Shown piece after piece: positions 10,827 to 37,486 of a stretch of 64,000 bases of DNA. A program made the position numbers and the translations under genes. Within the stretch, counting starts at the first letter, position 1. Every line of letters starts with the position of its first letter. The DNA is from Schmidtea nova (taxonomy: Eukaryota). The DNA lies in NCBI GenBank assembly GCA_044892505.1, contig CM097883.1:275094001-275158000 (forward strand), written 5' to 3'. The notes beneath the pieces are model-generated. The model saw only the letters and a list, made by a program, of their open reading frames with translations. It searched no databases and was not told the origin of the DNA.

Positions 10827-10844
10827 TGGGGGCTCAGCCGGGAT
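10827..10844 (+). other. Primer-binding site, tRNA-Pro type
   Basis: TGGGGGCTCAGCCGGGAT, 6 nt after the LTR; 16/18 identical to the canonical tRNA-Pro PBS TGGGGGCTCGTCCGGGAT. Confidence 0.85.
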
Positions 10845-18247: not shown

Positions 18248-21200
18248 AGACGAAAAGAGACAAGATCAATGGGAATTATGTTTAAGGAAATTAAATAAAA
18301 TTGCGGAGATGAAAGAAAAAGAGACAACACCAATATGTCAAGGGGAGGAATGGATATCGAAAACAATAATGGAGATATTGGCAATAATTGATCCGGAATT
18401 GAGAAAATACTGGCGGATAACTGAGATAAGCGAAAAGGCGAAGTCACTACACAGCGCAATCGCACCCATTTTACCAGAATTCATAAAAGAAAAGACGAAA
18501 TCAAATCACTTAGACTGGCAAGGAACCACTATGTTAATAAAGAAACTGACAGAAGGAGCGGAAACGGATAATAAATACGTAATAGCCATTGCATACACGA
18601 TCTACAATCTATTAACATTGAGAAGAGGTCGACCAAAACCCACTGCATTAGAGAGACATATAAAGAATACCGCAAAGATTATAGCTAGAGAAATAGAACC
18701 CTACGTCATTAACAAAGGAGGATGGGAAACATTTATAAAAACTAACCAGAAGAAAACCCAAGCCAAGAATATGAAAAAGAAATTCGAAAAAATATTGGAA
18801 GAGTTAGGAAAAGAACAAGCAGGAACAGGAAACGCAAAGTCATCAATGAATCTGAGTGCTATAATAATGATGATGTTGATTTGGATGATTAGCACCGATA
18901 GCGCAACAGCATTCGAAGTGTTTGATTGCGACCAAATGAAGTTAGGAGAAAAGTATTCATTGAGAGGTACGGAGCAATGCAAAGATGCGACTCCAGTAGA
19001 GTTGCAAAAGATTAAAAAGGAACAATGGTACCACGTGTATCAAGAAGCAGAACTCATAAAGACAATGGTGAATGAATGTAAAGTGCAGAAGACGAGATTC
19101 GCGTTCTACTGCGGGAGAGGACATTATTCAGCAATTGTCATGCCAGGAACGGAAAGAGAACCAATCGTGTTACAAGGAGAAGACTGCGAAGCACTGTTTA
19201 AACATGGAGAAGTAACAACAAGAGATAAAATCAAGATAAGAGGAAAGCCAGGAATGATGATGCAACAAACGTACTATGTAGCAGGACGGATTACGGGAGG
19301 AGAAGGATATTGTCAAGGAGAAACCTACCCGATATTCGGAGTACCCGCAACCAACCTAGTAGTAATGGATACGTATATAGTCGAATTAAAAAGCTATGAA
19401 GCATTCTTCGAACCAACAACGGGAGAAATGAAAACGTTATCCATGTGTAAAATCGACAGGAGCATGTGTCAAACGGGAATGTCAACATTAGTGTACAAAC
19501 CAAAGGTAAACGAATGTCAGTTACAACTGCTACAAGGAGCAAAGTTCGACGAAATCCAAGGAAAAACGTTCCAGGAAGAAGACGATGACGACAAAGATAG
19601 AGCAAAGCATCTCAAGGAAGCTTTAGAGAATAAAAGACAACTGAAACCAGATCATAGAGAAAAACGAATAGAGATGAGAGCCACACCAACAGTATTGATA
19701 ACCACAAATCAGGATGTGGGAATGAGGTTCATAAAAGGAAAAGCAACCCTCAAGTGTAGTACAACGGTATACGAAACAAATTACCCAGGAATATATGTGT
19801 CAAAACAAGAAGTGCCAAACGCGAAACCCAAAATCGACACAATGGATATCAAACTACATTTGTATGTAAATAATAAAATGGATTTCCTATTCCATAGAGG
19901 ACAAGCCTCATTACAAAAAGTGTACTACGATCTAATAAATAATGATTGTATACTGAATCGAGAAATATTAAAGACAAAGTTGGCCGTAGCGATTACGAAT
20001 CCAGATAGCGCGATGCCATTATTACCACTGAGAGAAGGACATTTCGGAAGAGTGGTTGGAGAAGCAATGTATGTATACATTTGCGAAAAGACACACGCGT
20101 CACTAGCAGCAACAACACAGTTGAAACCTGGAACCTGTACAAATGAGTTAGAAATCGATTACAAAGGAAAAGTACGATACGTTCAACCGGTGACGAGAAT
20201 CATCAATCCACCAGGGTTTGAACCAAATCCATTCAACTGTAGTAATGCGTATGGACCACTTTATCAGAAACCAGATGGTAAATGGGTTATGTTCCCAGGA
20301 AGATCCGAAGTGATAGCACCAAGAGAATTCGAGCTAATGCAGTTGTCAAAGGATAGGCAATTCAGCGACGTGGATGTCTCAAACAATGGAATATATAGCC
20401 CAAAGGATTTAGAAGCAGCAAGGCAGAATATATTATTCCCAGCGAGAAGAGAAGCATTACTGTCAAATATCGTAACGATAACAGGAGGAACGGATTATCG
20501 AGAAGGACCGAATTATGAACTATTGTTGTCACCAGCACATTTCAAAAAAGCCACAGAAAACATGATGAAAGCAATGTGGGGAAGATTTCTGATATTCGGA
20601 CAAATGATGGCTGGAATACTGGGGGTTATATTAATCATCCAAATCGTCAGAGTAATAATAACACAAATGTTAGCATGTTTTGACATCTACAAGAGAGAAA
20701 AGAAAGTGAATTGGAAAATGGTAGTAGGATTTTTACCATTCCTTGCGAAAACGATGGTGTTACACGGTCACTCAAAAGATATCCACCGAATAAAAAGACT
20801 CCTAAAGATATTAGCAAAAATGAAGGGAACAGATGAAGAAGTAGGACGAAAATTTAAAAAGATAATGAATGACGAACAAGCAAGACAACAGCTCAAGAGA
20901 GAAAGAAAAGGTTTATGGGAGAGGATGAAAGGATATAAAACCCAAAATGATTCGAGTGACGACGATGACGACGATGACGACTATAAGGGAGGACAAGTGT
21001 ATAAGAACCAAGCACCACAATACATCGAAAAGAATCCAGCCGACGCATGGAAATGTTACGCACCTCCACCAACAATGTACCAAGAACCACTACAAGGAGG
21101 AAAAAATAGCACGATGCAAATGATGCCAATGACAAATGTATACCCCATGATACCAGAAGATTATAAAATGAGAAGATGTAGAAGCGTAGATCCACAAGGA

Positions 21201-24200
21201 GATACACATACGATCGCCGTAATGTCATCAAACACAGGTCCGGTATTAACCACGACAATAGAAATTAACGGAAGAGAAATCGAAGCAATGATCGACACTG
21301 GAGCAAACATTTCCGCCATCGACATCAAATGGATACCACAAGAGCAAAGACGGGAAATAGAAAGGACAAACGTCCATGTAATTGCATGTAGCAAAGAAGT
21401 TGTAGAAGTAGCAGGAAGATGGTGGGTAAAAATACGCCACTTAAACACGGAAATCGATACATACGTAGCTGTTATAACAGCATTAAGCGTACCTTGCATT
21501 ATCGGAACAGATTTGATGCCAGCATTATTTAAAGAGATTGTAATCGATCTCGGAACAATGAGACTAAAGGATCGCACAGGACAAATATGCGCAATAGAAG
21601 CCAAAGTGACAAGTTCAAAGCAAATGATAATACCCGCAAGAAAGGAGAAAATATGTTACGTAAAAATAGATCCGACAATCCAAGGGGATATGATTTTCGA
21701 ACCAAGTAAGAGATTCGAGAAAAGAAAAGCGTTGCCAATGGCAAGAGGACTAGTCAACATAAATGACGATGGAGAAATCCCAATAAACGTAGTAAACTTC
21801 GATGAAGAGGACAAAATAATATACGAAAACGAAAGATTAGGTAAATTAACCCCAATGATGGATATCGAACTGCCAATAGAAGGAGCAGAGAAAGATAAAG
21901 AACCAACCTGGAATATAGATAGTGAATTATTAAATGAGGATCAAAGGAAGCAGTTAGAAAAACTCCTGATAGAGTATAAGGATATATTTGCAGCATCCGA
22001 TTTGGATCTAGGAACATGTGATGTCACACTACATACAATACCATTAACAGATGAAACACCAATTGCATTAAGGCCGTACAAATTAGCGGAAGCACAGAAA
22101 GCAGTAGCAGAAGCAGAAGTGAAAAAAATGTTGGATGCAGAAGTAATCGAACCAAGTTGTTCACCCTGGCAATTTCCAGTGGTAATGGTGAAGAAGAAAG
22201 ACGGAACACAGAGATTCTGTATAGATTACCGAAGATTGAATACAGTGACAAAACGAGATACTTACCCATTACCAGACATCAACGAGATGCTACTAACATT
22301 ACAAGGAGCAGCATATTTTACGTCGTTAGATCTGAAAAGCGGATATTGGCAAATAAAAATGAAGGAAGAAGATAAAGAGAAAACTGCCTTTACCATCGGT
22401 AGAGACCTATATCAATTTCGAAAGATGCCATTTGGATTAACGAACGCACCAGCATCATTTCAGAGATGCATGAATTTCGTCACCCATGGAATAAAGCAGT
22501 GCATGGTCTACATCGACGATTTATTAATTTATTCTAGTACATTTGAACAACACATACAAGATATTCGAGATGTATTCGTTAGACTTAGACAATGGAAGTT
22601 AAAACTCAAGCCATCAAAATGCGATTGGGCAAAAGAAAAGGTTACATTTTTAGGACATATAGTGTCAGCAAAAGGAAAAGAACCGGATCCTAGAAATATC
22701 GACAAGGTAAAAGAATGTCCAGTGCCAAAAACAATAACCCAAATACAAGAATTTCTCGGACTATGTGGATATTATAGAAAGTTTATAAAAGATTACGCCG
22801 GAATAGCAAAACCTATACAGGAGCTGGTAAAGAAAGATGTATCATTCATATGGGGAGATGAACAACAAATAGCCTTTGAAACGTTGAGAGATAAATTGAT
22901 AACCGCACCCATATTGGTACACCCAGACTTTAAGAAGCCATTCCTACTTGCAACAGATGCAAGCGGATATGCAGCAGGAGCAGTATTAGGACAATACGAC
23001 GACGAAGGAAAAGAACGGGTAATCGGATATTATAGCCGAACATTCAAAAAGCATGAGAAAAATTACTCAGTGACAGAACGGGAAGCATTAGCGATTATAT
23101 TAGCGATTAAACATTTTAAATACCTATTATGGGGACACATCATCTGCATAACAACAGATCACCAACCGCTTGTATGGTTAGGACAGCACAAGGAAACATC
23201 CAGTAGATTAATGCGATGGGCAATGCAGTTACAGGAGTACTCACCAGACATTAAATTTAAATCAGGACGAGCGAATGCGAATGCAGATTGTATGTCAAGA
23301 CTGACATTTCCAGAACTAACCGATCCTGATGTACAACGAATTTGTGTATTAATAGCGGAGGATTTAGATTTTAGTGAGTTAAAGAAAGATCAACAAGAAG
23401 ACAAAGAATTAGGACAAATCATAGAGTTCCTAACATCTCGAAATATGGAAGTATTCAAGGATAATAAGGAATTAAAGGAACATATAGGAAAATATCAACA
23501 TCGCTACATAATAAATAAAGGATGGTTATTAATACAAGACGGGGAAAAGAGATTGATGTGTTTACCGGAAAACAGAAGGAAAGAGATAATGATCCAGTAC
23601 CATGATGGGAAACTAGGAGGTCATATGTCCGAGAAAAAGACAATAAATCGTATGAGACAAAAATATTATTGGCGAACAATGGAAGAAGATATAAAGGAAT
23701 GGATTAAAAATTGTCTAACTTGCGCAACCAGAAAGGATAGTGGGAAGAAATGGAAGAACCCACTACAACCAATGCCGATACCAGCAGAGCCAATGACAAC
23801 TATAGCAATGGACGTAATAGGACCATTACCAGAAAGTTTAAACGGAAATATTTATATATTGGTAATAACGGATTATTTGACGAAATTCCCGGAAGCATTT
23901 GCCATGCAAGACCAAAAAGCAAAAACCGTAGCAAAAATTCTAGTGGAAGAAATATGTTGCAGATACGGAACTCCAAAACAAATACTCACAGACCAAGGAA
24001 CTAATTTTATGAGTGAATTATTGAACGAGGTGACAAACTACTTCAGAATAGCAAAATTGAGAACTTCACCATATCACCCGCAAACGAATGGACAAACGGA
24101 GCGATTCAACGGCACATTGATTAGAATGTTATCAAACTACGTCAGCAGACACCAAACTGACTGGGATGAATACATAAAATTATGTTTAATGGCATACCGA

Positions 24201-27200
24201 ATGTCGATACATGCAGCAACAAAACTAAGCCCATTTCAACTTATGTATGGAAGAGAATGCAACATGCCCATAGATTTAGAGTATCAGCCACCATTATCGC
24301 AATATATGGAAGATGACGACTACGTAACCAAATTCAAAGAAAGAATGCAGGAGATATGGAAAACGGCAGAACTCAACATTAAATTCTATCAGGAAAGTTA
24401 TAAGGATTTACACGACCAGAAGAAAAATGTTAAAGCAAACGACCTAAAACCAGGAGATTGGGTGATAATAGAAACTCCCGAAATAATACCAGGAACTGTT
24501 AAGAAACTCCAAAGACCTGGAAGAGGACCTTATGAAATTATATACAAAAAGGACAACAATGTCAAAGTTAAGCTAATAAATAGACCGTTAATACGACCCA
24601 TATATGTAAACACCTGCAGATGTAAGAAAGTGCCTAAAACGATAACTACAACACCAGAAAATCGAATAATAACCAGATCACAAACAGCCAGGATAAATAT
24701 GCTCAGAGCTAATGCAACTGAAGACGACAAAGCAGAAATAAGGCAAAAAGAAATCAGAAATAAAGAGATCATATTGAAGGCGAGAGAAATAATGGGAAGA
24801 TGGCATGTTAAAGACGAAGTAGGCATATCAAGGGACATTAGACATATAATTAGCCGTTACGCACAAGGATTGCCAACCGAACCAATTATTTCGGATTTAT
24901 TGGAAAAAATCCCGGAAATACTCTTATTGAAAGATGTAGGAGGACAACCGGCCTTACATAATGCGATTCAGTGTAAAAACATTGAAAGAGCAAAAGAATT
25001 CTTGAAAATCGCAAAAGAAACAAACCAAAACCTAGACGTTGGGAATCGTGAACAAGAAACTCCATTAATGACAGCCGCAATCCACCAAGCAGATAAAGAA
25101 ATGATAGATCTATTGATAAAAGCTCATTTCAGTTGGACAGAACGAGATAGAGAGGACAAAACAGTGCTAAATCACGTAATATGGAGTTCTCACCAACCAA
25201 TGCTGGAATACATAATAGCTAACTCCACTTGGGAGATAGACGAACTAGTTAAAGGAGACATTATCAAAGAGGCAATCAAAATTGGTAAATGCAACACGAT
25301 CCGTAAGTTAATCAAATGGAAACGACCAGAAGATGATACATGGGTCTTAGACATAAACGAAGTATACAGCGAAGGACAAAACGCACTGTTAAGATACCTT
25401 TTGAAATTTACTTGTGATCAGAAGACATTACTAACCTTATTAGACAGAGGAAACATAAACATCACAAAGAATGAAGAAGAATACAAATTCGATAAAGAGA
25501 AGGAAGCCTTATTCAATAAGATTAGGAAATGGTGTGCGAAACCACTTGATAAACTAATAACATACAAAGACATAAACAATTTTAACGAGAAATACCAGAC
25601 GATAGTAAGCGAATATGAGGAATTAGTAAAAATCTTAAACCATCCCGAAAAATGCAAACAGGTTTTAGAGAAAAAAGAAAGAGAAAGTAACAAGAAACTC
25701 ACACCACTCTTCAAAGCAGAAGCACCATACCAAGCTAGACTAGATGCGATACAAGAAAAAGCAAAAGAATTGTTACCGGAATTCGAGAATAGTAAACATG
25801 CACTGGAAATACTCGGCGCATTAGTTGAAAAAGTACACGCATACGCAAAAGGAACATACAATGGTAACGACATAGTAATAATAAAAAAGGAGATGCCAGT
25901 AACATTCCTATTACCAAAAGACGGAATAATGCCCATACATAGAGCTCTACGAAATGGCAAAGATAGGAAAGTAATGGAAATTGCAAGAGTAATGCTAAAT
26001 TGCGGAAGCAATATGAATATGATAGACGAGAAAGGAGATACACTTATGATATTTGCAGCAAGGGCCAAAACGAAAACAAAGGTATTAGAAGAACTATACA
26101 AAGCAGGTGCAGGACTTACAGGAAAGACAGATAAAGATAATTCGATATTGGATGTAGCATTATTAACACACAATTGGGAAATGGTCAATTTCATTAAAAC
26201 CGTCCCAAATCAGGAAGAAATAGATCACCTAACTGATACGGTCAAGAAACCCAGTGTACTAGCAATGATGAACAACGTCGAACTAACAGAATCAATACTT
26301 ACGTGGATAAATCCTAATACTAACGAACCAGCATTCAGGATTAATAAGTTTACAGAACATAACCAAAACTGGTGTATAAGAAGTGCCTTAATAACGTATA
26401 AATGGCCAGAGATATTGAAGATGTTTATGGAAAGAAAAGATCTAAAAATCACAACCAGCCCGAAAGAGGAAAAATACACAGGCAAATGGAAAGAATTGAT
26501 GAAGACATACATCAACAATTGGATCAAGGCCAAAAAGGAAATCTTGGAACATAAATCCACTAACAAAGTAATACCGGAGCAGGTAGAAACACAAGAATTT
26601 GAGGCAAGTAATCTAACGACATTAGCATATGCAAAATTGATAGAAGAAATCAATGTCGAGGACGACATTTTCGACGAGCCAGGGGGAGATGACAACACAG
26701 ATAGTGACGACGGTAACAACTCAGAAAATTCAAGCGATCACGAACCACCCGATAAAGAGGAAAACGAGAGAAAAGACAAGAAACGAGACAAGGAAGGAAA
26801 GAAAGGTGAGGACGAAAAACAAAGAGATGAAGAGAGAGAACAAGGAACAAACGACCAAGGAGATAAAAATGACACCCAAAGAACAGGTTATAAATCAACC
26901 ATAAAACCATTCTTCAAACCAGAATTACTATTACTAACAATGATTATAACGTTAATTAATCCAAGTCAGGGAATGACATGTGAAGAAAGGGCAATAATAC
27001 AAATAAAAAACGCAAAAGGAATCGAACGAGTATGTTGGTCGAAAAAGGACAAAATCACGGAACAAAATAGCCCGATGGATTGCAGAATCTCAGAACACGA
27101 GCAAGAAATCATAGAGATCAACGACCTAGATCTAGATACCTGGTACAAAATATGCACCGTTAGGAAACAAAAGCATCCAAGATCACACAACACAATCGCA

Positions 27201-30200
27201 TGTGCAAAATACCAAACACCTAAAGCAGCCATGACAATACAACAGTCACCCAAAGGAGATTACATCATCGGAAAATGTGGAAGAACAGAGACACAGGGAA
27301 CAGAAAACAAAAAACCCCAGGCAATAGATAAGCAAACAACACCAACCCTACGAATTACAATAGAGAGGCCCGAAACAAGAATTGCCACAAACGAAACCGA
27401 AAGAGTGTCTTACCAAATGGAAGTATTATGCTTAGCACTCATACTAATAATGATAAAACGATTAGAGGAAGGAATAGAAATTGAAACTATGACAATAACA
27501 GAAGTAGAAGATACACAGAATACTAACATAAAATGTTGGGCGAGGAATAACGAGGAAATCGGCGTAAATGAAATAAGGAAAAGTCGAAAACCAACAACGA
27601 ATAAAGTAATTAAAGTATCCGAAGTAAAAGCAGATAAGACGTACAAACTATGCCTACTAGAAAAAGAGACAAACAAGAAAGGTACCACAAAATGCAAAAC
27701 ATTTCAACCCGGAGAAGTAATAAAGTTCAGAAGGAGAACGAGGAAGAGAAATAAACAAATCAAGCGGAAAATGAACATAACATTAGAAATAAAAGAGATA
27801 GAACCAAATGTGAAAGGAGTATGCTGGAGGAAGTACGAAAAAGAAACAAATAAAAGAACGACACCACAATGTCAAACAAGCACAGGAGCAACGACGATTC
27901 AAATAAAAGGTTTAGAAAGTAAACAAACTTACGAAATATGTCTGATAAAGAAAAATGATCAGATAACGATAAACGATCTAGAATGCGGAATATACACCAC
28001 TTCATCCGGAACAAGAACTAAAACGATAACACGAAAAAATAAAAGAAGACAACGAAACAAAGGGAAACCGAAGTACACCACTACCTTTAAAAACAATAAA
28101 CAACCGATAAGCCAAGAAGTTACGACAAAACCCGAGAAAAAGACATCAGCAACTCTGACATTATGGAAAATAGAGAATAAAACATTGGAGATATGTTGGA
28201 TAATAGTTCAGAAACATATAAGAAGACAATCAAGAGAGTGCAGAAAAACAAATAAAGAAATCAAGATCGAAAAACTACAATTTAATAGCGAGTATGAAGT
28301 ATGTACAATAGAAAAGACGGACGCACTAGGAAACCAACAAGAAAGATGCGAAACCTACTATACACCAGCGAACGCAACATCAAAAGGAATAACAAGGAAA
28401 CTCGAATTCAGGGAACTAAGCCAAACGAATGAACAAATGGACGCAGAAAAAACAATAACCGACCCTCAAGCAAAATGGACACCCGAAGAAGTTATCAAAG
28501 AAGTCAAAAGAAAGCAAGAGGAACGAGAACAATTAATGAGAAAACTAAAGGGACAATACGGAATAATGTTCAACCAAAGCGAACCTATACAAACAGACGA
28601 GAATAAAGAAATTAAAGAACTAATCGGCTTAGGAATATTAACAGCAACCATACCAGTAATAATCGCGTTATCAGCTATATGGATACGCAAGATAAACCCA
28701 AGAAAATCAACAACCCAATGGCTAAATATAGATAATACAAGCCATGGAGTAGAAATACTAGAAGAAAAAGCACGAGAAGAACCAAATAAGAAAGAAGCGA
28801 AAAGCGGAAAACTAGGAATAAACAACAAAGACAAGGAAATAAAAGAGATTAAAGGCGAAGAGAAAAAATATGAAAGGCGAACCAGAAGCCTACCGCAGAG
28901 TTCAAAATGGTTGGGTCTAACAATAATATTGACATTAATCAATAGGGAAGAAGCAACAAACCTACAAGCAGGGATAAAAATAGTAAATGTCCAGGAGGTC
29001 GAGAAAATATGCTGGAATAGAGAGGATGAACCAATTGGGAAAGATAACCCACTAAAATGCATAATCAGAAAATCCGACCAGGATATAGTACGAATAGAAG
29101 GGATGGATAGAGGAATCATGCATCGAATATGCATAATAGGAAAGGAAAAGAAGTCGGGGCTACCTAAGACAGTCGTATGTCAAAAATACGAAACGCCTGG
29201 ACTCGAATGGTATAGAGTAAAACCAACAAAGAAAGAAATCAAAAACACCATAGATCAACCAGCAACTCAGATAAGAAACACAACGGATAAACCAGGAGAA
29301 GGAGAGAAAAGCACCAATAAAACGAGAGAAAGAATATCACCCCAACAGGAGTGCGTATGCATAGCATTAATACTAGCAATGTCCAAACGTATCGATAAAG
29401 GAATAATAATAGAACAAATGGCCATAACAATAAGGAAAACAAGCAGCAACAAACTATGCTGGGGAACATATAACGAACCAAGGAAGGAATACCAAGTTCA
29501 GACAAGCGACGAATCACGAACAAACAAGGAAATCGAAATACAAGAAATACAAATGAATGAAGAAGGAAGTATATGTATATGGGAGAGAGGAATCCAAGAG
29601 GGAATAGAGCATTGCAAGACATTCCAAAAAGGGGAGATACTGAAATTCGATGAAGAAGAATTAACAAAAACAGAAAGAACTCTGACATTAACAGGACTCG
29701 ATCAGACAGTTAAAGGAATATGTTGGACAAAGCATAACCCAGAAGGGGAAGAAGACAACCTAACTCACTGTAGAGAAATAAAGAATAAAGAAAAAGTCGA
29801 ATTAAAGAAAATGGAAGTAAATAGGACATACGCGATATGTACCTTCACCAGAAAAGGTTCAGAAAAACCAGAATGCGGATTATATCAGATCTCAGAGAAA
29901 CTACAACAACAGATCGAACCAGGAAACATGGAAAACCGAACAAAAGAAAATAACGTCAAACAACTACTAAACCGCCATTGGTCTACCCAAGAAGTAATGA
30001 ACAAAGTCAAGAGTCAAATACCGAAAGAGAAGAAGCCAGAGGCTCAAACCCGAAATGAGATAAAAGTAAATCAGAATAAAAACAAAGAAACAAACATGGG
30101 GAAAGCAGTAATAGGATTGATCAGTATGGGAATATTAATAACGTATGGAATACTGACGACAAGCATAATAATATATTGGAGATACAGAAAGAGAAACAAA

Positions 30201-30362
30201 GCGACAGCCATACAATGGCCAGATATTAAAATTATGAAGCAAAGAATAGAAATACCAGAAGAGATACAGCAAGAATTCCAAAGAAGAACGAAAGGTAAAG
30301 AATTCTGGAAACAAATAGAAGATGAAGAACGATACGAGGAAAAGACGATAATGATGGTATAG
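18132..30362 (+). CDS. pol: 4076-aa polyprotein: Bcl-2-like / envelope glycoprotein / PR / RT / RNase H / IN / ankyrin repeats / two FN3 membrane proteins
   Basis: DTGA at 21294, YIDD at 22509, TDAS at 22953, integrase HHCC plus D,D,E and GPY; uninterrupted ORF. Confidence 0.96.
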   Translation: MSPKKQDEQQGLWKQVQEWINDLEVDLRQTQQTVVVRNKDEKRQDQWELCLRKLNKIAEMKEKETTPICQGEEWISKTIMEILAIIDPELRKYWRITEISEKAKSLHSAIAPILPEFIKEKTKSNHLDWQGTTMLIKKLTEGAETDNKYVIAIAYTIYNLLTLRRGRPKPTALERHIKNTAKIIAREIEPYVINKGGWETFIKTNQKKTQAKNMKKKFEKILEELGKEQAGTGNAKSSMNLSAIIMMMLIWMISTDSATAFEVFDCDQMKLGEKYSLRGTEQCKDATPVELQKIKKEQWYHVYQEAELIKTMVNECKVQKTRFAFYCGRGHYSAIVMPGTEREPIVLQGEDCEALFKHGEVTTRDKIKIRGKPGMMMQQTYYVAGRITGGEGYCQGETYPIFGVPATNLVVMDTYIVELKSYEAFFEPTTGEMKTLSMCKIDRSMCQTGMSTLVYKPKVNECQLQLLQGAKFDEIQGKTFQEEDDDDKDRAKHLKEALENKRQLKPDHREKRIEMRATPTVLITTNQDVGMRFIKGKATLKCSTTVYETNYPGIYVSKQEVPNAKPKIDTMDIKLHLYVNNKMDFLFHRGQASLQKVYYDLINNDCILNREILKTKLAVAITNPDSAMPLLPLREGHFGRVVGEAMYVYICEKTHASLAATTQLKPGTCTNELEIDYKGKVRYVQPVTRIINPPGFEPNPFNCSNAYGPLYQKPDGKWVMFPGRSEVIAPREFELMQLSKDRQFSDVDVSNNGIYSPKDLEAARQNILFPARREALLSNIVTITGGTDYREGPNYELLLSPAHFKKATENMMKAMWGRFLIFGQMMAGILGVILIIQIVRVIITQMLACFDIYKREKKVNWKMVVGFLPFLAKTMVLHGHSKDIHRIKRLLKILAKMKGTDEEVGRKFKKIMNDEQARQQLKRERKGLWERMKGYKTQNDSSDDDDDDDDYKGGQVYKNQAPQYIEKNPADAWKCYAPPPTMYQEPLQGGKNSTMQMMPMTNVYPMIPEDYKMRRCRSVDPQGDTHTIAVMSSNTGPVLTTTIEINGREIEAMIDTGANISAIDIKWIPQEQRREIERTNVHVIACSKEVVEVAGRWWVKIRHLNTEIDTYVAVITALSVPCIIGTDLMPALFKEIVIDLGTMRLKDRTGQICAIEAKVTSSKQMIIPARKEKICYVKIDPTIQGDMIFEPSKRFEKRKALPMARGLVNINDDGEIPINVVNFDEEDKIIYENERLGKLTPMMDIELPIEGAEKDKEPTWNIDSELLNEDQRKQLEKLLIEYKDIFAASDLDLGTCDVTLHTIPLTDETPIALRPYKLAEAQKAVAEAEVKKMLDAEVIEPSCSPWQFPVVMVKKKDGTQRFCIDYRRLNTVTKRDTYPLPDINEMLLTLQGAAYFTSLDLKSGYWQIKMKEEDKEKTAFTIGRDLYQFRKMPFGLTNAPASFQRCMNFVTHGIKQCMVYIDDLLIYSSTFEQHIQDIRDVFVRLRQWKLKLKPSKCDWAKEKVTFLGHIVSAKGKEPDPRNIDKVKECPVPKTITQIQEFLGLCGYYRKFIKDYAGIAKPIQELVKKDVSFIWGDEQQIAFETLRDKLITAPILVHPDFKKPFLLATDASGYAAGAVLGQYDDEGKERVIGYYSRTFKKHEKNYSVTEREALAIILAIKHFKYLLWGHIICITTDHQPLVWLGQHKETSSRLMRWAMQLQEYSPDIKFKSGRANANADCMSRLTFPELTDPDVQRICVLIAEDLDFSELKKDQQEDKELGQIIEFLTSRNMEVFKDNKELKEHIGKYQHRYIINKGWLLIQDGEKRLMCLPENRRKEIMIQYHDGKLGGHMSEKKTINRMRQKYYWRTMEEDIKEWIKNCLTCATRKDSGKKWKNPLQPMPIPAEPMTTIAMDVIGPLPESLNGNIYILVITDYLTKFPEAFAMQDQKAKTVAKILVEEICCRYGTPKQILTDQGTNFMSELLNEVTNYFRIAKLRTSPYHPQTNGQTERFNGTLIRMLSNYVSRHQTDWDEYIKLCLMAYRMSIHAATKLSPFQLMYGRECNMPIDLEYQPPLSQYMEDDDYVTKFKERMQEIWKTAELNIKFYQESYKDLHDQKKNVKANDLKPGDWVIIETPEIIPGTVKKLQRPGRGPYEIIYKKDNNVKVKLINRPLIRPIYVNTCRCKKVPKTITTTPENRIITRSQTARINMLRANATEDDKAEIRQKEIRNKEIILKAREIMGRWHVKDEVGISRDIRHIISRYAQGLPTEPIISDLLEKIPEILLLKDVGGQPALHNAIQCKNIERAKEFLKIAKETNQNLDVGNREQETPLMTAAIHQADKEMIDLLIKAHFSWTERDREDKTVLNHVIWSSHQPMLEYIIANSTWEIDELVKGDIIKEAIKIGKCNTIRKLIKWKRPEDDTWVLDINEVYSEGQNALLRYLLKFTCDQKTLLTLLDRGNINITKNEEEYKFDKEKEALFNKIRKWCAKPLDKLITYKDINNFNEKYQTIVSEYEELVKILNHPEKCKQVLEKKERESNKKLTPLFKAEAPYQARLDAIQEKAKELLPEFENSKHALEILGALVEKVHAYAKGTYNGNDIVIIKKEMPVTFLLPKDGIMPIHRALRNGKDRKVMEIARVMLNCGSNMNMIDEKGDTLMIFAARAKTKTKVLEELYKAGAGLTGKTDKDNSILDVALLTHNWEMVNFIKTVPNQEEIDHLTDTVKKPSVLAMMNNVELTESILTWINPNTNEPAFRINKFTEHNQNWCIRSALITYKWPEILKMFMERKDLKITTSPKEEKYTGKWKELMKTYINNWIKAKKEILEHKSTNKVIPEQVETQEFEASNLTTLAYAKLIEEINVEDDIFDEPGGDDNTDSDDGNNSENSSDHEPPDKEENERKDKKRDKEGKKGEDEKQRDEEREQGTNDQGDKNDTQRTGYKSTIKPFFKPELLLLTMIITLINPSQGMTCEERAIIQIKNAKGIERVCWSKKDKITEQNSPMDCRISEHEQEIIEINDLDLDTWYKICTVRKQKHPRSHNTIACAKYQTPKAAMTIQQSPKGDYIIGKCGRTETQGTENKKPQAIDKQTTPTLRITIERPETRIATNETERVSYQMEVLCLALILIMIKRLEEGIEIETMTITEVEDTQNTNIKCWARNNEEIGVNEIRKSRKPTTNKVIKVSEVKADKTYKLCLLEKETNKKGTTKCKTFQPGEVIKFRRRTRKRNKQIKRKMNITLEIKEIEPNVKGVCWRKYEKETNKRTTPQCQTSTGATTIQIKGLESKQTYEICLIKKNDQITINDLECGIYTTSSGTRTKTITRKNKRRQRNKGKPKYTTTFKNNKQPISQEVTTKPEKKTSATLTLWKIENKTLEICWIIVQKHIRRQSRECRKTNKEIKIEKLQFNSEYEVCTIEKTDALGNQQERCETYYTPANATSKGITRKLEFRELSQTNEQMDAEKTITDPQAKWTPEEVIKEVKRKQEEREQLMRKLKGQYGIMFNQSEPIQTDENKEIKELIGLGILTATIPVIIALSAIWIRKINPRKSTTQWLNIDNTSHGVEILEEKAREEPNKKEAKSGKLGINNKDKEIKEIKGEEKKYERRTRSLPQSSKWLGLTIILTLINREEATNLQAGIKIVNVQEVEKICWNREDEPIGKDNPLKCIIRKSDQDIVRIEGMDRGIMHRICIIGKEKKSGLPKTVVCQKYETPGLEWYRVKPTKKEIKNTIDQPATQIRNTTDKPGEGEKSTNKTRERISPQQECVCIALILAMSKRIDKGIIIEQMAITIRKTSSNKLCWGTYNEPRKEYQVQTSDESRTNKEIEIQEIQMNEEGSICIWERGIQEGIEHCKTFQKGEILKFDEEELTKTERTLTLTGLDQTVKGICWTKHNPEGEEDNLTHCREIKNKEKVELKKMEVNRTYAICTFTRKGSEKPECGLYQISEKLQQQIEPGNMENRTKENNVKQLLNRHWSTQEVMNKVKSQIPKEKKPEAQTRNEIKVNQNKNKETNMGKAVIGLISMGILITYGILTTSIIIYWRYRKRNKATAIQWPDIKIMKQRIEIPEEIQQEFQRRTKGKEFWKQIEDEERYEEKTIMMV
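18354..18740 (+). other. Bcl-2-like domain within the polyprotein
   Basis: Helical domain ending in BH2-like YVINKGGWETFI, with a hydrophobic alpha5-like NKYVIAIAYTIYNLL in the BH1 position. Confidence 0.65.
18846..20690 (+). other. Chuvirus-type envelope glycoprotein domain (signal peptide, Cys-rich ectodomain, TM)
   Basis: Signal MNLSAIIMMMLIWMISTDSATA; motifs FEVFDC, FYCGRGHYS, LYVNNKM, YYDLINNDCILNREIL, VGEAMYVYIC, NNGIYSPKDL...ILFP in the order recalled for chuvirus G; TM from 20586. Confidence 0.8.
21210..24640 (+). other. Core Pol: aspartic protease, reverse transcriptase, RNase H, integrase
   Basis: IDTGA; RFCIDYRRLN, DLKSGYWQI, MPFGLTNAPASFQR, YIDD; TDAS...YSVTEREALA...TDHQPL; H-H-C-C, AMD, TDQG, QTNGQTER, GPY. 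Confidence 0.98.
24930..26190 (+). other. Two clusters of ankyrin repeats after integrase
   Basis: GQPALHNAI, ETPLMTAA, KTVLNHVI; GIMPIHRAL, GDTLMIFAA, NSILDVAL, spaced about 33 aa apart. Confidence 0.85.
26925..28685 (+). other. Type I membrane protein module 1: signal, four FN3-like repeats, TM
   Basis: LLLLTMIITLINPSQG; four CW...L..x.Y.IC...C..Y/F.T repeats; TM LIGLGILTATIPVIIALSAIW. Confidence 0.7.
28908..30185 (+). other. Type I membrane protein module 2: signal, three FN3-like repeats, TM (paralogue of module 1)
   Basis: WLGLTIILTLINREEA; three similar repeats; TM AVIGLISMGILITYGILTTSIIIYW followed by RYRKR. Confidence 0.7.
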
Positions 30363-30488
30363 GGGCGGATTATGACTGTAAATAATAGTGTAAATAACAA
30401 AGCATTACCGTAATAGTATGGGTATCGATATTATAAAAAATTGTAAAAAGCTAGAAAAACAAAGTAAATGATGTATATAATTTAGAAA

Positions 30489-30845
30489 ATGACCGAACAG
30501 GACGAAACAACTGAAATAACTATGGCTATGAGATGGAAGGCACAATGTGATTTATTAGTACGAACAGTCAACTCATTACAGAACCAATTAGCGGAAAGAC
30601 AAATGTTATTATCAGAAAGTTATAACAATTGTTTCGAACAATTACACAGAATAGAGGAACAACAAAGAGCGATAACTGAACTCACCAGAGAAAATCAAAC
30701 GATAAGCAACACCAATCAAAGACAAGCAATAGAAATAAACCATTTAACACGAGGAGAAAGAGAAGGATCCGAAGAAGGATGGATGAGTTGGGTAATAAAT
30801 AGATTAAACAACGAAGCGGAACCAGATTCAACGAATGAGCCATAG
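30489..30845 (+). CDS. Accessory ORF, 118-aa coiled-coil protein
   Basis: Intact ORF with the element's A-rich codon usage, heptad pattern, TAG-AAA-ATG start context. Confidence 0.7.
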   Translation: MTEQDETTEITMAMRWKAQCDLLVRTVNSLQNQLAERQMLLSESYNNCFEQLHRIEEQQRAITELTRENQTISNTNQRQAIEINHLTRGEREGSEEGWMSWVINRLNNEAEPDSTNEP

Positions 30846-30937
30846 ATAAATAAAGCGGAAAACTGTAAATATGTAAAAATAAAAACAAGAAAAACCAAAA
30901 ATAAATGACAAGTCGAATGTATATATTATTGTAGAAA

Positions 30938-32314
30938 ATGGACAGAGAAGAACGAATAATCGAAATTTTGAGACTAGAAAACAGAAAATGGAGCAAGAGA
31001 CTCACATGCGGAAAATGTAACAATTTATTACGAGAACCCAGACAAACGATATGTGGATGTAGAATATGTACAAAATGTATACAAGAATTAGATGTAACAG
31101 GAATAACAACATGCCCAGCATGTAAAGAAGGAAGAATAGTGTTGAACGAAACCAGAACGGACAAAGCAACCCAGAGAGAAATTATGAGCACCATAACGGA
31201 GTGCGTAAATACACCTTGTACATGGCAAGGACAAATAAGCAATCTAGAGAACCATATGGAAAAATGCGAGGAAAAGAGAGCCGAATGCGAGAAATGCCAA
31301 CAGACAATAACTCTAAAGAAGAGAGAACAACACAAGGAAGAATGTAAAGAAGAAGAAATCGCATGCGAGTATTGTGAAACTCGAGAAACAAGGAGAAAAA
31401 TCGAAGAGGAACACTTGAATATAACAGAAGAGAAAGTATGCAGACAATATGTAAGTAAATGTCCAAACAATTGCGAAATAACCGAAGAAGTAAAGTTACA
31501 TGAACATTGGAAAGTATGTACCGAAAGACCAAGAGAATGTCCATATAACAAGCAGGGATGCAAAGAAAAGCGGACGCGGCAATCAATGAAACAACACCTA
31601 GAAGAAGCAGCACTAACGCATGTGGAAATGACAAACGAAACGACAAAAGAAACGGAACAGACAATCCAGAAATTAGAAAAAGAAGTAGAATCACATAAGA
31701 TAATGATGAGTTTACTACTAGAAACAAGAGAGCAGTTTGAACTAACTCGCGAAAGAATGGAAAAGAAAATAATAGCCATAGAAGAATTAGGAAAAGGAAT
31801 GAAAATACAATATAATCAATTAATACGAGAAATTGACGAAAGAAGGGACTTACCAATCGCACCTTACCTATGGAAAGTAACAGATTTCAGAGACAAACTA
31901 GCAGAAGCCAGAAATATGACGAAAACAGCAGTAATAAGCCCACCATTTTATTTATGGAAAAACGGGGTTAAAATAAGATTGAAAGTATACCCAAATGGAG
32001 ACGGAAGAGGACAAGGAACACACGTGTCAATATTCTTCTCACTATGTAAAGGAGAATACGATGACCTAATAGAATGGCCCTTGAAAATAGGAGTCATTAT
32101 AAGAATCAAAAGTATGGGAAAACCGGTAGAAAAGTTCTTTGAAACAGACAAACATTCGAGTACGAGCGAAAAACCAACGACAGAATGCGGACTAGCAGCA
32201 GGAGAACCAATGTTTATAAGGAAAGAAAACCTATGGGAGCAACTATATGCAGACACGCTATACATAGAGATGGAGAGGCATGAGAAAACAGACAGAAAAG
32301 GATGGTTGGCGTAA
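30938..32314 (+). CDS. Full-length TRAF-family protein (RING, TRAF zinc fingers, coiled coil, MATH/TRAF-C), 458 aa
   Basis: CGKCNNLLREPRQTICGCRICTKC...CPAC; C-x-C zinc fingers; LWKVTDF...SPPFY...YPNGDGRGQGTHVSIFFSLCKGEYDDLIEWP. Confidence 0.95.
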   Translation: MDREERIIEILRLENRKWSKRLTCGKCNNLLREPRQTICGCRICTKCIQELDVTGITTCPACKEGRIVLNETRTDKATQREIMSTITECVNTPCTWQGQISNLENHMEKCEEKRAECEKCQQTITLKKREQHKEECKEEEIACEYCETRETRRKIEEEHLNITEEKVCRQYVSKCPNNCEITEEVKLHEHWKVCTERPRECPYNKQGCKEKRTRQSMKQHLEEAALTHVEMTNETTKETEQTIQKLEKEVESHKIMMSLLLETREQFELTRERMEKKIIAIEELGKGMKIQYNQLIREIDERRDLPIAPYLWKVTDFRDKLAEARNMTKTAVISPPFYLWKNGVKIRLKVYPNGDGRGQGTHVSIFFSLCKGEYDDLIEWPLKIGVIIRIKSMGKPVEKFFETDKHSSTSEKPTTECGLAAGEPMFIRKENLWEQLYADTLYIEMERHEKTDRKGWLA

Positions 32315-32428
32315 TGAAGGAAGTAACCATGTAAATAAAATGTATAGAAACAATATAAATTAACGAATAATCAAAAACAATAAAAATAAAAAAATGATTA
32401 AATATTCTTTTTATCTGTAATTATAGAA

Positions 32429-33490
32429 ATGGGAAATATAGAAGTAACCTTACAAGAAGTAACAGTACATCAAGACGAAATGATCAGAAATCACATGGAG
32501 CGGATTGGGATATGGATTCATGCCTATTATCGAAAACAGGAGGAATTGGAAAGACAAACCCAAGCACTAAGAGAAGCCGAGAAAACGAATCAAAGAAGTC
32601 GAGAAAAAATAGAAGAAGTCTACAAACTACTAAGACAACAAAACGAATACTACAAAGAGATGATGAAAGAGCGACGAGAGGAGAGGGATAGACAACAAAT
32701 AAAAACAGACCATAAGATTCAGTCAATCACAGAACAAGCCAGATATTGGAAGAAAGAGGCAAAAGACTCTTATAAGGAAGCAAGGGAGATAATAGAACGA
32801 ACAGCGTACAGCGATGATTGGAAACTGTTTAAAGAGATCGATGAATTAAAAGAGGAATTAGGGCAAAAGATCAGTCAAGAAGCATCAAATAAAGTATGGA
32901 GTAAGAAAAGACAACAATTTATCCGAGAACAAGCCAAGAAAATAAAAGAATTAACTTATCAAGTACAAAGAATGGGAGAAGACTTAGCCAATCAAGAACA
33001 GTTAAAAGGTATGCTGACAGGAATGTGGAATCACAAGGAAGAAAACATGAAAAGAGACATAAATGGATATCAAGGAGTGATCACCCAGAAGAAAATAGAA
33101 TTAAAAAGAACTAAAGAAAGAATGGAAGAAACGAGGCAGAGTTATGAAGAGAACATAACAAATTTGGCAAAAGAAAACGAAGAACTGAGAAAGAAGTTGG
33201 CAGAAAAACCAACACCAATAAAAGAAACAAGTATCACAGCAGCAGTGACCGAAATGATGGAGAAGGAAGAGAGAGAGAAAAAATTGGCAGAACTAGAAAA
33301 ACAAATTGAAACCCTAACAGAACAGGCGAACTATCTGGAATACTTATTAGATGAAGAGATCCAGATATCCCACACATACCGAGAAGAAGTCGAAATGTGG
33401 AGGAGCACGGTAATATGGATGCCACTCCCCATAAATCAGGTGGAACCTCAAGACGAAGGTTTTCACGAACCCAACGAAACCCTTGTATAA
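32429..33490 (+). CDS. Accessory ORF, 353-aa coiled-coil protein
   Basis: Intact E/K/R/Q-rich heptad ORF; pyrimidine tract plus TAG directly before ATG. Confidence 0.75.
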   Translation: MGNIEVTLQEVTVHQDEMIRNHMERIGIWIHAYYRKQEELERQTQALREAEKTNQRSREKIEEVYKLLRQQNEYYKEMMKERREERDRQQIKTDHKIQSITEQARYWKKEAKDSYKEAREIIERTAYSDDWKLFKEIDELKEELGQKISQEASNKVWSKKRQQFIREQAKKIKELTYQVQRMGEDLANQEQLKGMLTGMWNHKEENMKRDINGYQGVITQKKIELKRTKERMEETRQSYEENITNLAKENEELRKKLAEKPTPIKETSITAAVTEMMEKEEREKKLAELEKQIETLTEQANYLEYLLDEEIQISHTYREEVEMWRSTVIWMPLPINQVEPQDEGFHEPNETLV

Positions 33491-33565
33491 ATGTGCGGAA
33501 ACCAAGTGTAAATAAATTATGTAAAATAAAAAGTGTCAAGCTGTATTGACCGATGTATAAAAGAA

Positions 33566-34135
33566 ATGAGAAAGCTCGCAATAGCAACACTCCTATGGTT
33601 AACAACCATTACCCTACAGAGAGAAGATCTACAACTAACCGAAACCCAATTACGAGTTCTACCCGACAAAACCTATCAGAAAGTAGACAGCCTAATCGAA
33701 GAAGTAATTAAAGAAATCAACGAATTCCGACAGAAATTCCCCCACAATCAAGATCGTCAAATCCAACAAATCTTCGATAATCAACAACTGAAACTAGAAG
33801 AAACCCGAAAAATCCTGAAAGAAGGTAGAGAACCCATAAAAAGCCTATCCCAAGCTGAAATAGAATATCAAGAGAAATGGATCATAGCAATCATCATAAT
33901 CCTAGCAGTCAGCACAACTATCATCGCAATCACAATCCTGCTTGCCTCATATAGAATAAAAATCCTAAAACAAAAGCAGAAAATCTACAACCAAACCTCC
34001 AGACGAGATAACCGAGCTCAAAGACGAATAAGGAGCCATCTCAACCACATTCAAACCCACTACGAGCTACAAATGATCAACGAGAGGACCCGAACTCAAC
34101 CCCAAGCGAGCCAGACGATCGAACAAATTGTATAA
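33566..34135 (+). CDS. Accessory ORF, small type I membrane protein (signal, helical ectodomain, TM, basic tail)
   Basis: ATG at 33566; MRKLAIATLLWLTTITL; TM WIIAIIIILAVSTTIIAITILLASY. Confidence 0.72.
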   Translation: MRKLAIATLLWLTTITLQREDLQLTETQLRVLPDKTYQKVDSLIEEVIKEINEFRQKFPHNQDRQIQQIFDNQQLKLEETRKILKEGREPIKSLSQAEIEYQEKWIIAIIIILAVSTTIIAITILLASYRIKILKQKQKIYNQTSRRDNRAQRRIRSHLNHIQTHYELQMINERTRTQPQASQTIEQIV

Positions 34136-34339: not shown

Positions 34340-35727
34340 TGTTGGGCCCGCCAAATCACCTAAAAACACAATAAAACGAACAAAATCATGAAACAATAAA
34401 GAAATGATAAAAATAAAAATAGCAAGAAAAACAAATTAAAAATAACAATAAAACGACAAATAATAATTGAGAAATTTTCAGTAAAAGGAAATTTTGAAAA
34501 TAAACCGGTAAACAACCGCAAAAGGGGGCCTGAAATAAGAAAAGTAGAATTAAATAAAATAATAGTACAAATAATTAATTAATTACTTAGAAAATCAGGA
34601 CCACCCAGCGAGAAACCGGAAAAGGAAACAAAATAATGTTTAGATTAGATTAAAATAATAAAAATACTTTGAAGGACGGCCTGATCCTGATTGGTCAATC
34701 CAACCAGACGGATCAGTATAAATACCGATCCAAAAATCACAACAACAGACTTGAGACGTTTTTACTTTTCACTTACAATCAAGACTAAACTTTGATTTAA
34801 GTAACATTTCATTTAACGAAGCGAGAATTTTTTGAAAAAACAGAATTCAAGTACGGAACGTAATTTTTATTGTTATTTTTTAATGTACCCATGATTTTTA
34901 TTTTAATTAAAAGTTTATATGTAAACGTCATTTCATTTTTTCATTGATTATTTTTAATGCATATAGCTATACTTCCTATGCTGCTCACGCGGCGAGGGAG
35001 TCCGAGTCGTCGTCGTGGGGCCTCAGGGTCTCACATGGCGGTTCAACCTTTTTATTATTTAATTTAGATGTGAAGTTTTATCTAGAAAATTTGATTGAAT
35101 TTTTAGTCTAATACAGACCATTTGCAAATTATTTAATTTTGGGTTGCACAACGGACGAAGGTCGAGGGCCAAATATGTAGATTGCGGAGGGCGGATGGAT
35201 AAGGAGGGACACCCCATGGTAGGGCATGCTCAGTCTTTAAATTTTTGGTAAATTGAATCGAAAGGGAACCTCCCGCATGGAAAACAGTGAGCAACAACTA
35301 AAATAAATTTGAATAATTTCGTTGGAATGAGAAAATCCAACGTAGTCCAAAGTCCGATTTCATTCGGAATCAGCATTTCGCCTACGAAATTTTAACATCG
35401 ATAAATTCCGATCGCGATGGAATGCGTCGGAAAATCCAAATTAAATTAGTTACTAAAAATAGGCCGATCGTCGTATATGACGCGGTTTCCCAAGTTATTC
35501 TCCGATCGCTGTATATAGCGCGGAAATCTTGATTAAATTCGATAATTCCTGAATGCTGTATATAGCACAGGACTAATTATGAACTCTTTATTCCGACCGT
35601 GGTAGATCACGGCGGAGAGAAATAAAATTAATCTTATTTTTTAACTGTTGTGATTATATGCAACATAATTAAATTATCAACGAATTTCCCCCTTAACTCA
35701 TATTTATATCCAATAAATGTAATATAG

Positions 35728-36207
35728 ATGTCGACAGCTGAACTTATACATCAATTGACGCAACTACGGAATATGGAGCAAGGGAATCTGCGAAATGGAA
35801 ATATCTCGCAGCTCAAGGATCTACCAGCATCGATATTGCGGACCCTCAACTGCCAAATGTATAAGTGGCGACAGGGGTTTGGCCGAAAATGCCCGTTCTC
35901 GATATGGACAGGAGGGCACGACCAAATACTCTATCGAGGAGGACCGAACTGGCCGATTTCTCAAAGGCCGTACTCAAACAAATTTGGCCGACTTGTCGTA
36001 CTGATCAAGGACACCGATGGACGGACAAGCCGTGTAATTTATTGGGGGCATATCCCTCGTCGGGAACTATGCCAACTAGGCCTACACGAATTCCTGCCAC
36101 GAAAACCGTTCGGCAAGGAGTGCCAGAAAGGACAATCCTCATTCTCTTGGGCTCGTCTCCGTCAGAAACCGATTAACAGCGAATTGCATAGCCTGTTTCG
36201 GAGATAA
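35728..36207 (+). CDS. LTR-encoded ORF1, 3' LTR copy
   Basis: Translation identical to 9093-9572. Confidence 0.55.
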   Translation: MSTAELIHQLTQLRNMEQGNLRNGNISQLKDLPASILRTLNCQMYKWRQGFGRKCPFSIWTGGHDQILYRGGPNWPISQRPYSNKFGRLVVLIKDTDGRTSRVIYWGHIPRRELCQLGLHEFLPRKPFGKECQKGQSSFSWARLRQKPINSELHSLFRR

Positions 36208-36390
36208 GAACTGATTGTCAAATCTTTCAAATTGTGATTAAATATTAATATTCAGTAGTGTTTTTGTTTTGTTGTTTTGAGTTTTGGTATTGTGTTTTTA
36301 TAATTCATATTCGTAACCAAATAACCCTATAATCAGTTTCATTTTTCACATCATTTAATCATAGAGTAAATATCCTAAATAAATTATAGA

Positions 36391-36987
36391 ATGAACCCAG
36401 ATTTGATGCAGAAAGAATTGGAAAAGATGTGGCGGATTCGGAGAGCCCAGGACAAGGAATTGGGTCTCCTCAAGGCACAATTGATCAAAGCAGAGGCACA
36501 GATTGCATATTTGCGCAAAAGCTGGTTTGCTCCGGCCCGTATGAAGGAGCAAATCAGTAAAACCGAGCGCGCCCAACAGACTGCAGCCGATTACCAAATG
36601 GAATGGGAGGCTACAAAGATAGAACTCCGAAAATGCCTCCATTCCGTAACTGCCTCATACATCGAGAAGGAACTCAGAGAGCAAATCCGTCCGATTACGT
36701 ACCAAGCTTGGACGGCAGAAAAGAAGACAGTAAACTCCATTGGAACGGATGTCACCGATTTAATTGAAAGTCGGAATGAGACAGCTCCTCCAGCCAATTC
36801 AACCACTTCATCGGCGACTGCGCACCAGAAACGCAAGCGCATTGGGCAGAAACGGCGGAGACAGAGAAAATTATTTGCCCAGCAATTACAAATCCAAGTC
36901 GATGGTCTACATCAGATGACTGAGGAAGCATTATTGACGGAGATTTTTCCTCCGGCGGGAGTTTTTACCGAACTCATTAAAAATTAA
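36391..36987 (+). CDS. LTR-encoded ORF2, 3' LTR copy
   Basis: Translation identical to 9756-10352. Confidence 0.8.
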   Translation: MNPDLMQKELEKMWRIRRAQDKELGLLKAQLIKAEAQIAYLRKSWFAPARMKEQISKTERAQQTAADYQMEWEATKIELRKCLHSVTASYIEKELREQIRPITYQAWTAEKKTVNSIGTDVTDLIESRNETAPPANSTTSSATAHQKRKRIGQKRRRQRKLFAQQLQIQVDGLHQMTEEALLTEIFPPAGVFTELIKN

Positions 36988-37454
36988 ATAAATTGTTGCA
37001 TTGGCTTAAGAATCTCATCGTTCATTTAAATTGATTTAATTAACTTTACCAATGATTAAATAAAGATAGAACAAAAGTATAAATTCAGTTTACAAAATAT
37101 CGAATAGAGATAATTAAATAATTAAGCGAGCATTCGTTGAAATACTTCTCGCAGACTGAGCAATGATAAAAATAAATTTTCTGAAAGATTAACGCGGGAT
37201 ACATAAGTAGATGATTAAAGCATAAGTCCTTCTAACGGCAGCAATGAACCCGTAAACATAAATGGGGAGTAGTACTAGCGATAGTGCTCACCTGCCCATC
37301 ATTGTTTAACCACCCTGCGCATCACCAACTTGATTATATAGGGAAATAATCAAGGGCGCTGGAGTGTAGAATTGCAATTTTATGCATGATCATGGATGAG
37401 GGATCCCTAGTCATTGTTAGAACATTTTTCATCTAACCCCTCCATGAACCCAGC

Positions 37455-37486
<32 letters not shown>

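Follow-up and report, generated by a model that had tools for sequence, protein, structure and literature searches.

How a mobile element might obtain separate proteins from a row of closely spaced open reading frames (ORFs) is the question raised by a 64,000-nt stretch of Schmidtea nova DNA (GCA_044892505.1, contig CM097883.1, positions 275,094,001 to 275,158,000 of the forward strand), here called the window. Positions 7705-37455 of the window hold an element that its sequence identifies as a Burro-type giant gypsy retroelement with long terminal repeats (LTRs). Its + strand carries, in order, two ORFs within the LTR, a RING ORF, tandem repeats, gag, a long polyprotein ORF, and a cassette of four further ORFs. 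A preliminary description of the window had proposed a polycistronic RNA resolved either by spliced-leader (SL) trans-splicing or by alternative cis-splicing from one LTR donor. The architecture of the element is real and conserved, and its SL step is predicted. The accessory ORFs are read here, with confidence a little short of even, as an SL-resolved operon in which an LTR donor would be used at most once.

Acceptor-like sites before the start codons

Two families of the element were compared. The window copy belongs to family 1, and a solo LTR of family 2, with a CTAC target duplication, lies at 54087..57394 (+). Full family-2 copies have the same ORF order, and their accessory proteins are 29-55% identical to those of family 1. 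In the LTR of the window copy, ORF1 (9090..9572, +; 159 aa, no Pfam family) and ORF2 (9752..10352, +; 198 aa, 29% identical to the solo-LTR ORF2) each have an acceptor-like TAG in front. The RING ORF (11143..11610, +; 153 aa, PF13920) stands behind an acceptor-like CAG followed by TAA.

The cassette begins with spacer 1 (30363..30488, +), which contains three UGUAHAUA words and an acceptor-like TAG ending at 30485, and which leads to ORF A1 (30489..30845, +; 118 aa, 51% identical to family 2). Spacer 2 (30846..30937, +) contains three AATAAA, two UGUAHAUA, and an acceptor-like TAG ending at 30934. It is followed by a TRAF-like ORF (30938..32314, +; 458 aa), in which Pfam detects a RING, TRAF zinc fingers, and a MATH domain; this protein is 52% identical to family 2, and most of it aligns with animal TRAF2/4 at 24-26% identity. 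Spacer 3 (32315..32428, +) has TGTAAATAAA, a T-rich tract, and an acceptor-like TAG ending at 32426, and precedes a coiled-coil-like ORF (32429..33490, +; 353 aa, 55% identical to family 2). Database searches found no relatives of the coiled-coil ORF or of LTR ORF2. Spacer 4 (33491..33565, +) also has TGTAAATAAA, and in family 1 it lacks a YAG near the ATG of ORF A4 (33566..34135, +; 189 aa, 34% identical to family 2). Judged by eye, ORF A4 has a hydrophobic N-terminus and one internal hydrophobic stretch. The spacer lengths of 126, 92, 114, and 75 nt, the coordinates, and the start contexts of the preliminary description proved exact; the family-2 spacers measure 125, 91, 89, and 73 nt. Same-strand cistrons no more than 300 nt apart, with an acceptor-like site before the downstream ATG, are seen in family 1 at three of the four cassette spacers and in family 2 at all four.

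A YAG ending 0-3 nt before the ATG was scored, with the other + strand ATGs of the element as controls. It was present at 6 of 7 accessory ORFs versus 66 of 577 other ATGs (Fisher p=1.8e-5), and at 3 of the 4 cassette ORFs taken alone (p=0.005). These YAGs end at 9092, 9754, 11145, 30485, 30934, and 32426, with linkers of 0, 1, 3, 3, 3, and 2 nt. In the 20 nt that lead up to each of the three cassette AGs, the T fraction is 0.45-0.65, compared with 0.15-0.26 in the remaining spacer. The pattern had also been claimed for the two LTR ORFs, the RING ORF, and both solo-LTR ORFs, and it is present at all of them. In the solo LTR, the ORFs lie at 55618-56253 behind TTTAG and at 56445-57008 behind TACAG (both +), and the YAGs end at 55610 and 56442, with linkers of 7 and 2 nt. 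For the second of these ORFs, the pattern requires the ATG at 56445, not the one at 56427.

Within families, the AG is invariant in 29-30 of the 29-30 copies reached; these copies are best matches and close kin (90-100% identical), and the comparison that counts is the one across families. In family 2, a YAG lies 1-9 nt before the ATG in 7/7 counterpart ORFs, and the AG is kept while the linker and frame change. The YAG of the RING ORF is found in 12/12 family-1 and 11/11 family-2 copies. A third LTR-like family has TTTYAG-AAA-ATG in 20/20 loci. On account of these statistics, the conservation across families, and the likeness to host SL acceptors described below, the AGs before the ORFs are with good probability functional splice acceptors.

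It could also be proposed that the RNA stays unspliced, that the downstream ORFs are reached by reinitiation or internal entry, and that the AGs simply follow from start contexts rich in A and from inheritance. No junction was found in the fossil, copy-probe, or contig searches given below, the ATG at 33566 has no YAG, and copies that are 90-100% identical make within-family invariance say little, all of which suits this proposal. However, it does not account for the YAG excess over the other ATGs of the element or for the survival of the AG between families while the linker varies. In addition, at ORF1, A1, the TRAF-like ORF, and the coiled-coil ORF, the AG is preceded at a distance of 11-33 nt by a further ATG. 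Unspliced expression is thus regarded as very improbable.

The gag gene has a comparable site. The acceptor-like TTTGTATTTTAG (13302..13313, +) has a matching site in 23/23 copies of the two families, and by its letters, ending at 13313, it is the eighth acceptor-like site of the element. It is followed by an ATG-free gag leader (13314..13894, +) with an in-frame extension of 173 codons at 13376-13894. No other stretch of the element runs as long without an ATG as the one that includes this leader (610 nt; the second longest has 322 nt). It is 483-653 nt long, and ATG is absent, in 23/23 copies of both families. Its frame is continuous with gag for 121-197 codons in the two families and begins near a shared AAA-ATT-GAG. 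Because the leader frame runs into gag from near this motif, a longer Gag from an AUU start at AAA-ATT-GAG (13382-13390) is possible.

Spacers, the candidate LTR donor, and the proposed processing

In the proposed mechanism, transcription would yield a single long RNA. A 3' end would form in every spacer and the SL would be trans-spliced to the AG that follows, so that each ORF would end up on its own mRNA. The UGUA and AAUAAA clusters would act as 3'-end or 3' untranslated region signals, and 3'-end formation in a spacer would free the next acceptor. The LTR donor would serve the first intron at most, and donor-less acceptors further downstream would take the SL. A fraction of transcripts would escape all cuts and become genomic RNA; neither the SL operon nor cis-splicing accounts for such an escape from eight acceptors. 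In earlier work, SL addition is reported to need no more than an acceptor that lacks a free donor upstream (PMC8629364, PMC4558846), and flatworm operon spacing peaks at about 100 nt (PMC8629364, PMC12582326). The SL-resolved operon is favored over its rivals because a donor-less acceptor takes the SL, spacer 3' ends would free the acceptors, and the spacing is about 100 nt.

Each cassette spacer reads as a putative 3' end followed by an acceptor, because UGUA is the word of CFIm and UGUAHAUA is a Pumilio element. UGUAHAUA occurs 13 times in the eight cassette spacers of the two families, against a shuffle mean of 0.66, and none of 3000 shuffles reached 13. It occurs once in the 12.2-kb pol ORF, and it lies within the last 120 nt of 1 of 7 host outrons. 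UGUA itself is enriched in the cassette spacers (28 versus 11.3 expected). AATAAA was rejected as proof of spacer poly(A) sites, as it showed no enrichment. Spacers 1 and 2 align closely across the families, whereas spacers 3 and 4 share motifs only.

The shared motifs allow another reading, in which each spacer holds a small promoter and the AG lies within its start region. GCGGAAA-like and TGTAAATA motifs are kept between the families, and TATATAA or TATAAAAG stands ahead of 30489, 30938, and 33566. In this reading, TGTAAATA would represent forkhead-type sites and TGTATATAA would serve as a TATA box. However, the TATA-like words lie less than 20 nt from the ATG, and a start 30 nt further on falls inside the ORF. 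For the TRAF-like ORF, such a start would remove the conserved RING end. The family-2 TRAF and coiled-coil spacers have TGTAAAT at this place, not TATA, and the fixed YAG with its preceding T-rich run is left unexplained. Internal promoters are therefore considered improbable.

Cis-splicing is the other alternative. Here every acceptor would receive the same short leader exon from the LTR, with its end at 8216 or 8224, and the 3' ends of the messages would be nested or alternative. The predicted LTR promoter (8054..8090, +) consists of a reverse CCAAT box and TATAAATA, and the family-2 LTRs are arranged alike. Behind it lie candidate splice donors, recognized by their letters, GTACGG (8217) and GTAATT (8225), within 8217..8230 (+). 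The solo LTR has a TATA at 54485 and AATAAAAG|GTAATT at 54588-54601 (+). Donors had been suggested at 8225 and 54596, and GT is present at both; the second is directly behind AATAAA and is followed by a GU-rich run, and could for this reason be a poly(A) site rather than a donor. AAC|GTAA is found at 8225 in 30/30 best-matching family-1 LTRs, and AATAAAAG|GTAATT, which contains AAG|GTAATT, in 23/25 family-2 LTRs within an otherwise variable leader. Cis-splicing is favored by this donor-like site after the TATA box. It is also favored by the host, where intron and SL acceptors are alike, so the AGs fit either mode. In PMC4558846, a flatworm LTR is reported to be cis-spliced to an SL acceptor.

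Cis-splicing would nevertheless require introns of 22-25 kb that skip four to seven acceptors. The family-2 donor overlaps AATAAA and the GU-rich run; one family-2 LTR without GT keeps AATAAA, and another without AATAAA keeps GT. AATAAAAG|GTAATT can be read as a donor, a poly(A) site, or both. A search for spliced LTR copies, which is a weak test, found none against 140 unspliced ones. Taken together, cis-splicing of all ORFs from the LTR is thought rather unlikely.

In family 1, ATTAAA lies at 8271 and is followed by a U-rich run. As a separate observation at 8217-8237, GTACGGA equals the seven letters that open the SL RNA intron, and the AATTTTT(A/G)A after it resembles the SL Sm site. This likeness was noticed post hoc, is not seen in family 2, and may be chance.

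The spliced leader in the host genome and the search for junctions

Three SL1 RNA genes are located at G000:C2:409.01 Mb. Their exon ends with ATG and is followed by GTACGG, and an Sm-like AATTTTTAAC is present. The exon matches the Schmidtea SL1 exon printed in Fig. S6 of PMC10899757. The SL exon motif has 1,742 matches in the genome (control 0). At 30/30 loci read, the exon continues into varied mRNA-like sequence and not into the SL intron, and a shared element of about 145 nt is nearly always in front. Two pairs of such loci that were examined are LTRs of 1.75-1.8 kb (TG...CA), 4.9 kb apart. Most SL-exon matches thus appear to be fossils of SL-bearing mRNAs in another LTR family, which looks like gene capture via the spliced leader and would constitute a genomic archive of trans-spliced mRNAs.

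Members of this family, for example L143:297-7007, L144:347-7024, and L070-L099 (G000), have TGGTCGCGC...CCA ends and the primer site TGGTAGCAGAG and lie in AAT repeats. In their LTRs, the shared stretch of about 145 nt is followed by a complete SL1 exon and by fragments, free of introns, that come from many host mRNAs. The internal ORF of L143 contains HSP90 and ubiquitin pieces.

Eight captured pieces were searched in the genome. Seven source genes were found, each with a YAG exactly at the SL joint, and for one captured cDNA no source gene was found in the genome. The introns of three source genes are absent from the captured copies. In the seven host genes, the linkers from SL acceptor to ATG are 1, 1, 3, 3, 8, 18, and 19 nt. 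The host acceptors include TTAG|AAAATG and TTAG|TAAATG, as at 30485 and (TAG or CAG) at 11145. On this evidence the Burro sites resemble genuine SL acceptors of the genome, and they resemble host intron acceptors just as closely.

For the proposed resolution by splicing, the AGs are well supported as acceptors and the SL machinery exists in the genome, but no junction read or fossil was found. A probe of the LTR exon to 8224 plus ATG gave 0 genome matches, as did the same exon without the following G. The exon to 8216 gave 1 match, which looked unrelated. A family-2 probe for spliced copies was too loose (7,879 matches) and was discarded. The frame of the SL's own AUG was considered as a way to separate SL use from cis-splicing, and this failed: host fossils show in-frame, out-of-frame, and AUG-UAA arrangements alike. 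Four runs (X1-X4), contigs of unrecorded kind from one study, behave like DNA, with coverage of all bins and also of the part ahead of the TATA box. Among their listed rows there was neither a GT..AG joint nor an SL loose end; a further 915 and 278 rows with loose ends, and 2 joints, lay beyond the listing.

Several results weigh against the SL operon. Among 100 listed SL fossils of 107 with a nearby ATG, none continues into a Burro start; a second fossil probe gave 0/32, a third had no matches, and 0 of 49 distinct SL junctions match Burro. These blanks lower the odds only somewhat, because the archive is built from a small number of captures that recur many times. In the host, 0 of 7 SL genes had a plausible cistron ORF ending close upstream, so that no host operon was found among them. 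The donor-like GTAATT near the LTR promoter is conserved in both families (30/30; 23/25). AATAAA is not enriched in the spacers (11 versus 8.2, p=0.19), is absent from two family-2 spacers and from family-1 spacer 1, and is followed by A-rich rather than U- or GU-rich sequence. The start at 33566, which the preliminary description had correctly called weaker, has no YAG within 9 nt, and 20/20 further copies likewise have only AAG or GAG; its family-2 counterpart has CAG-AA-ATG in 7/7 copies. Finally, the homology of families 1 and 2 means that the two sets of counts cannot be treated as independent.

An indirect link between Burro-type LTRs and host SL genes is suggested by a 235-nt module. 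It stands 450-700 nt ahead of the SL acceptor, on the same strand, in four of the seven host genes (L191, L244, L253, and L260). Given its 13,505 motif matches, one would expect it at a rate of 0.8% per 1.5 kb; a concentration of the module near genes would make this figure higher. It forms the 3' end of the LTR of the third family, and it aligns with the LTR ends of family 1 (z 5.8) and family 2 (z 8.9). The family-1 LTR end (10560..10820, +) aligns against shuffles with those of family 2 (z 11.3) and family 3 (z 5.8), and the RING acceptor lies 325 nt behind a Burro LTR end of the same kind as the module. Among 27 module loci, taken from the first 2.4 Mb of C1 after three overlapping loci were dropped, a host Pfam domain was found downstream in sense at 4 and in antisense at 0; the scan covered the longer frames only (59/98 sense and 62/118 antisense). 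In the window, the module occurs at 37505-37738 (-), 52711-52935 (+), 60347-60489 (-), and 61481-61536 (-).

The module fits the use of the SL on RNA that would start in, or run through, Burro-type LTRs. It is possible that the module is a co-opted promoter, and the host genes next to it may have their own promoters. It can be hypothesized more broadly that Burro is an env-bearing operon of eight SL-resolved cistrons with a trans-spliced Gag, that the LTR ends of its relatives spread as promoters of host SL genes, and that a second LTR family copies SL-capped mRNAs by the hundreds. This combined picture is tentative and on the doubtful side. Separately, the third LTR-like family (L203:4749-5318, L223-L242) has a single 189-aa ORF behind TTTTAG-AAA, with TGTAATAAA after its stop and a faint likeness to LTR ORF2 (E 0.018).

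The element, known systems, and other features of the window

The whole element (7705-37455, +) is 29,751 bp long and is set within AAT repeats. Its 5' LTR (7705..10820, +; TG...CA, 3116 bp) lies inside an AAT microsatellite, and its 3' LTR (34340..37455, +) carries second copies of LTR ORF1 and ORF2. The element is young and its two LTRs are identical, with 0 differences over 3116 bp. Directly after the 5' LTR, both families have a primer-binding-site-like TGGGGG... (10827..10844, +), with a putative likeness to tRNA-Pro.

The polyprotein (13895..30362, +) contains, according to Pfam, gag, env, protease (PR), reverse transcriptase (RT), RNase H (RH), integrase (IN), and ankyrins. Gag has a CCHC knuckle, and env is a Monjiviricetes-type fusion glycoprotein (PF24664, E 1e-70) ahead of PR. 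The gypsy order PR-RT-RH-IN is found at positions 1041, 1353, 1574, and 1812-1983 of a 4076-aa ORF. Gag and pol share one open frame in 14/14 other copies fetched, whereas in the window copy this frame is interrupted near 18110-18250 (18108-18247), although its LTRs are identical. Ankyrin, MATH/TRAF, and RING domains are all present in the element. BIR and BCL2-like motifs had no Pfam or PDB match in the element; the published assignments had used HHpred. Searches of viral and metagenome contigs found no relatives.

The element type is already known. According to PMC6431247, Burro (Burro1/GYPSM1) of planarians measures about 30 kb and encodes a single polyprotein in which env stands between gag and the PR-RT-RH-IN domains of pol. 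It carries ankyrin repeats, MATH/TRAF, and RING, and in one species MATH forms an accessory ORF of its own. The window element shares the size, the polyprotein order, the env position, and the ankyrin, TRAF, and RING domains. In contrast, it has a TRAF-like ORF and three further ORFs downstream of the polyprotein and two ORFs in the LTR, and it lacks a Pfam match to BIR, which the published work called by HHpred. The passages of the Burro literature consulted contain no description of how the accessory ORFs are expressed or of an operon-like processing layout. A Burro1 apoptosis inhibitor is reported to protect stem cells (PMC13465017, citing Lee 2026). High levels of Burro RNA are reported for neoblasts and for piwi knock-down animals.

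Flatworm and nematode SL operons, as presented in PMC8629364, PMC12582326, and PMC5832876, likewise have same-strand ORFs about 100 nt apart, an acceptor near the ATG, and SL RNA genes. They differ in that the Burro cistrons lie in a mobile element that also needs uncut genomic RNA, have A-rich spacers, and are predicted users of the SL. Complex retroviruses, gypsy env splicing, and the adenovirus major late unit use one promoter and one leader donor for many acceptor-led ORFs; the Burro accessory ORFs, nearly all of them behind an acceptor-like site, likewise have a predicted LTR promoter and a candidate leader donor. However, the hosts of those systems have no SL RNA, and most Burro spacers also carry UGUA/AAUAAA clusters after the stops. 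In Schistosoma mansoni, SL exons merged with transposable elements were described at six loci (PMC5832876), a hint that retroelement RNAs can carry the SL; the authors allow for assembly chimeras and describe no multi-ORF cassette. The titles and abstract openings of the literature searched describe no SL-resolved LTR element. If the SL operon is true, a mobile element has adopted host operon processing, which would help explain gene gain up to 30 kb.

A search of Rfam gave no match anywhere in the window. Arrays of 29-nt and 32-nt tandem repeats lie between the RING ORF and gag at 11999-12830, and family 2 has other repeats there. A DUF4371 ORF flanked by inverted repeats at 42334-44862 (-) is likely a DNA transposon. 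An intron-less galactosyltransferase ORF is located at 48107-49333 (+), and integrase fragments from another LTR element are located at 50200-51064 (+).

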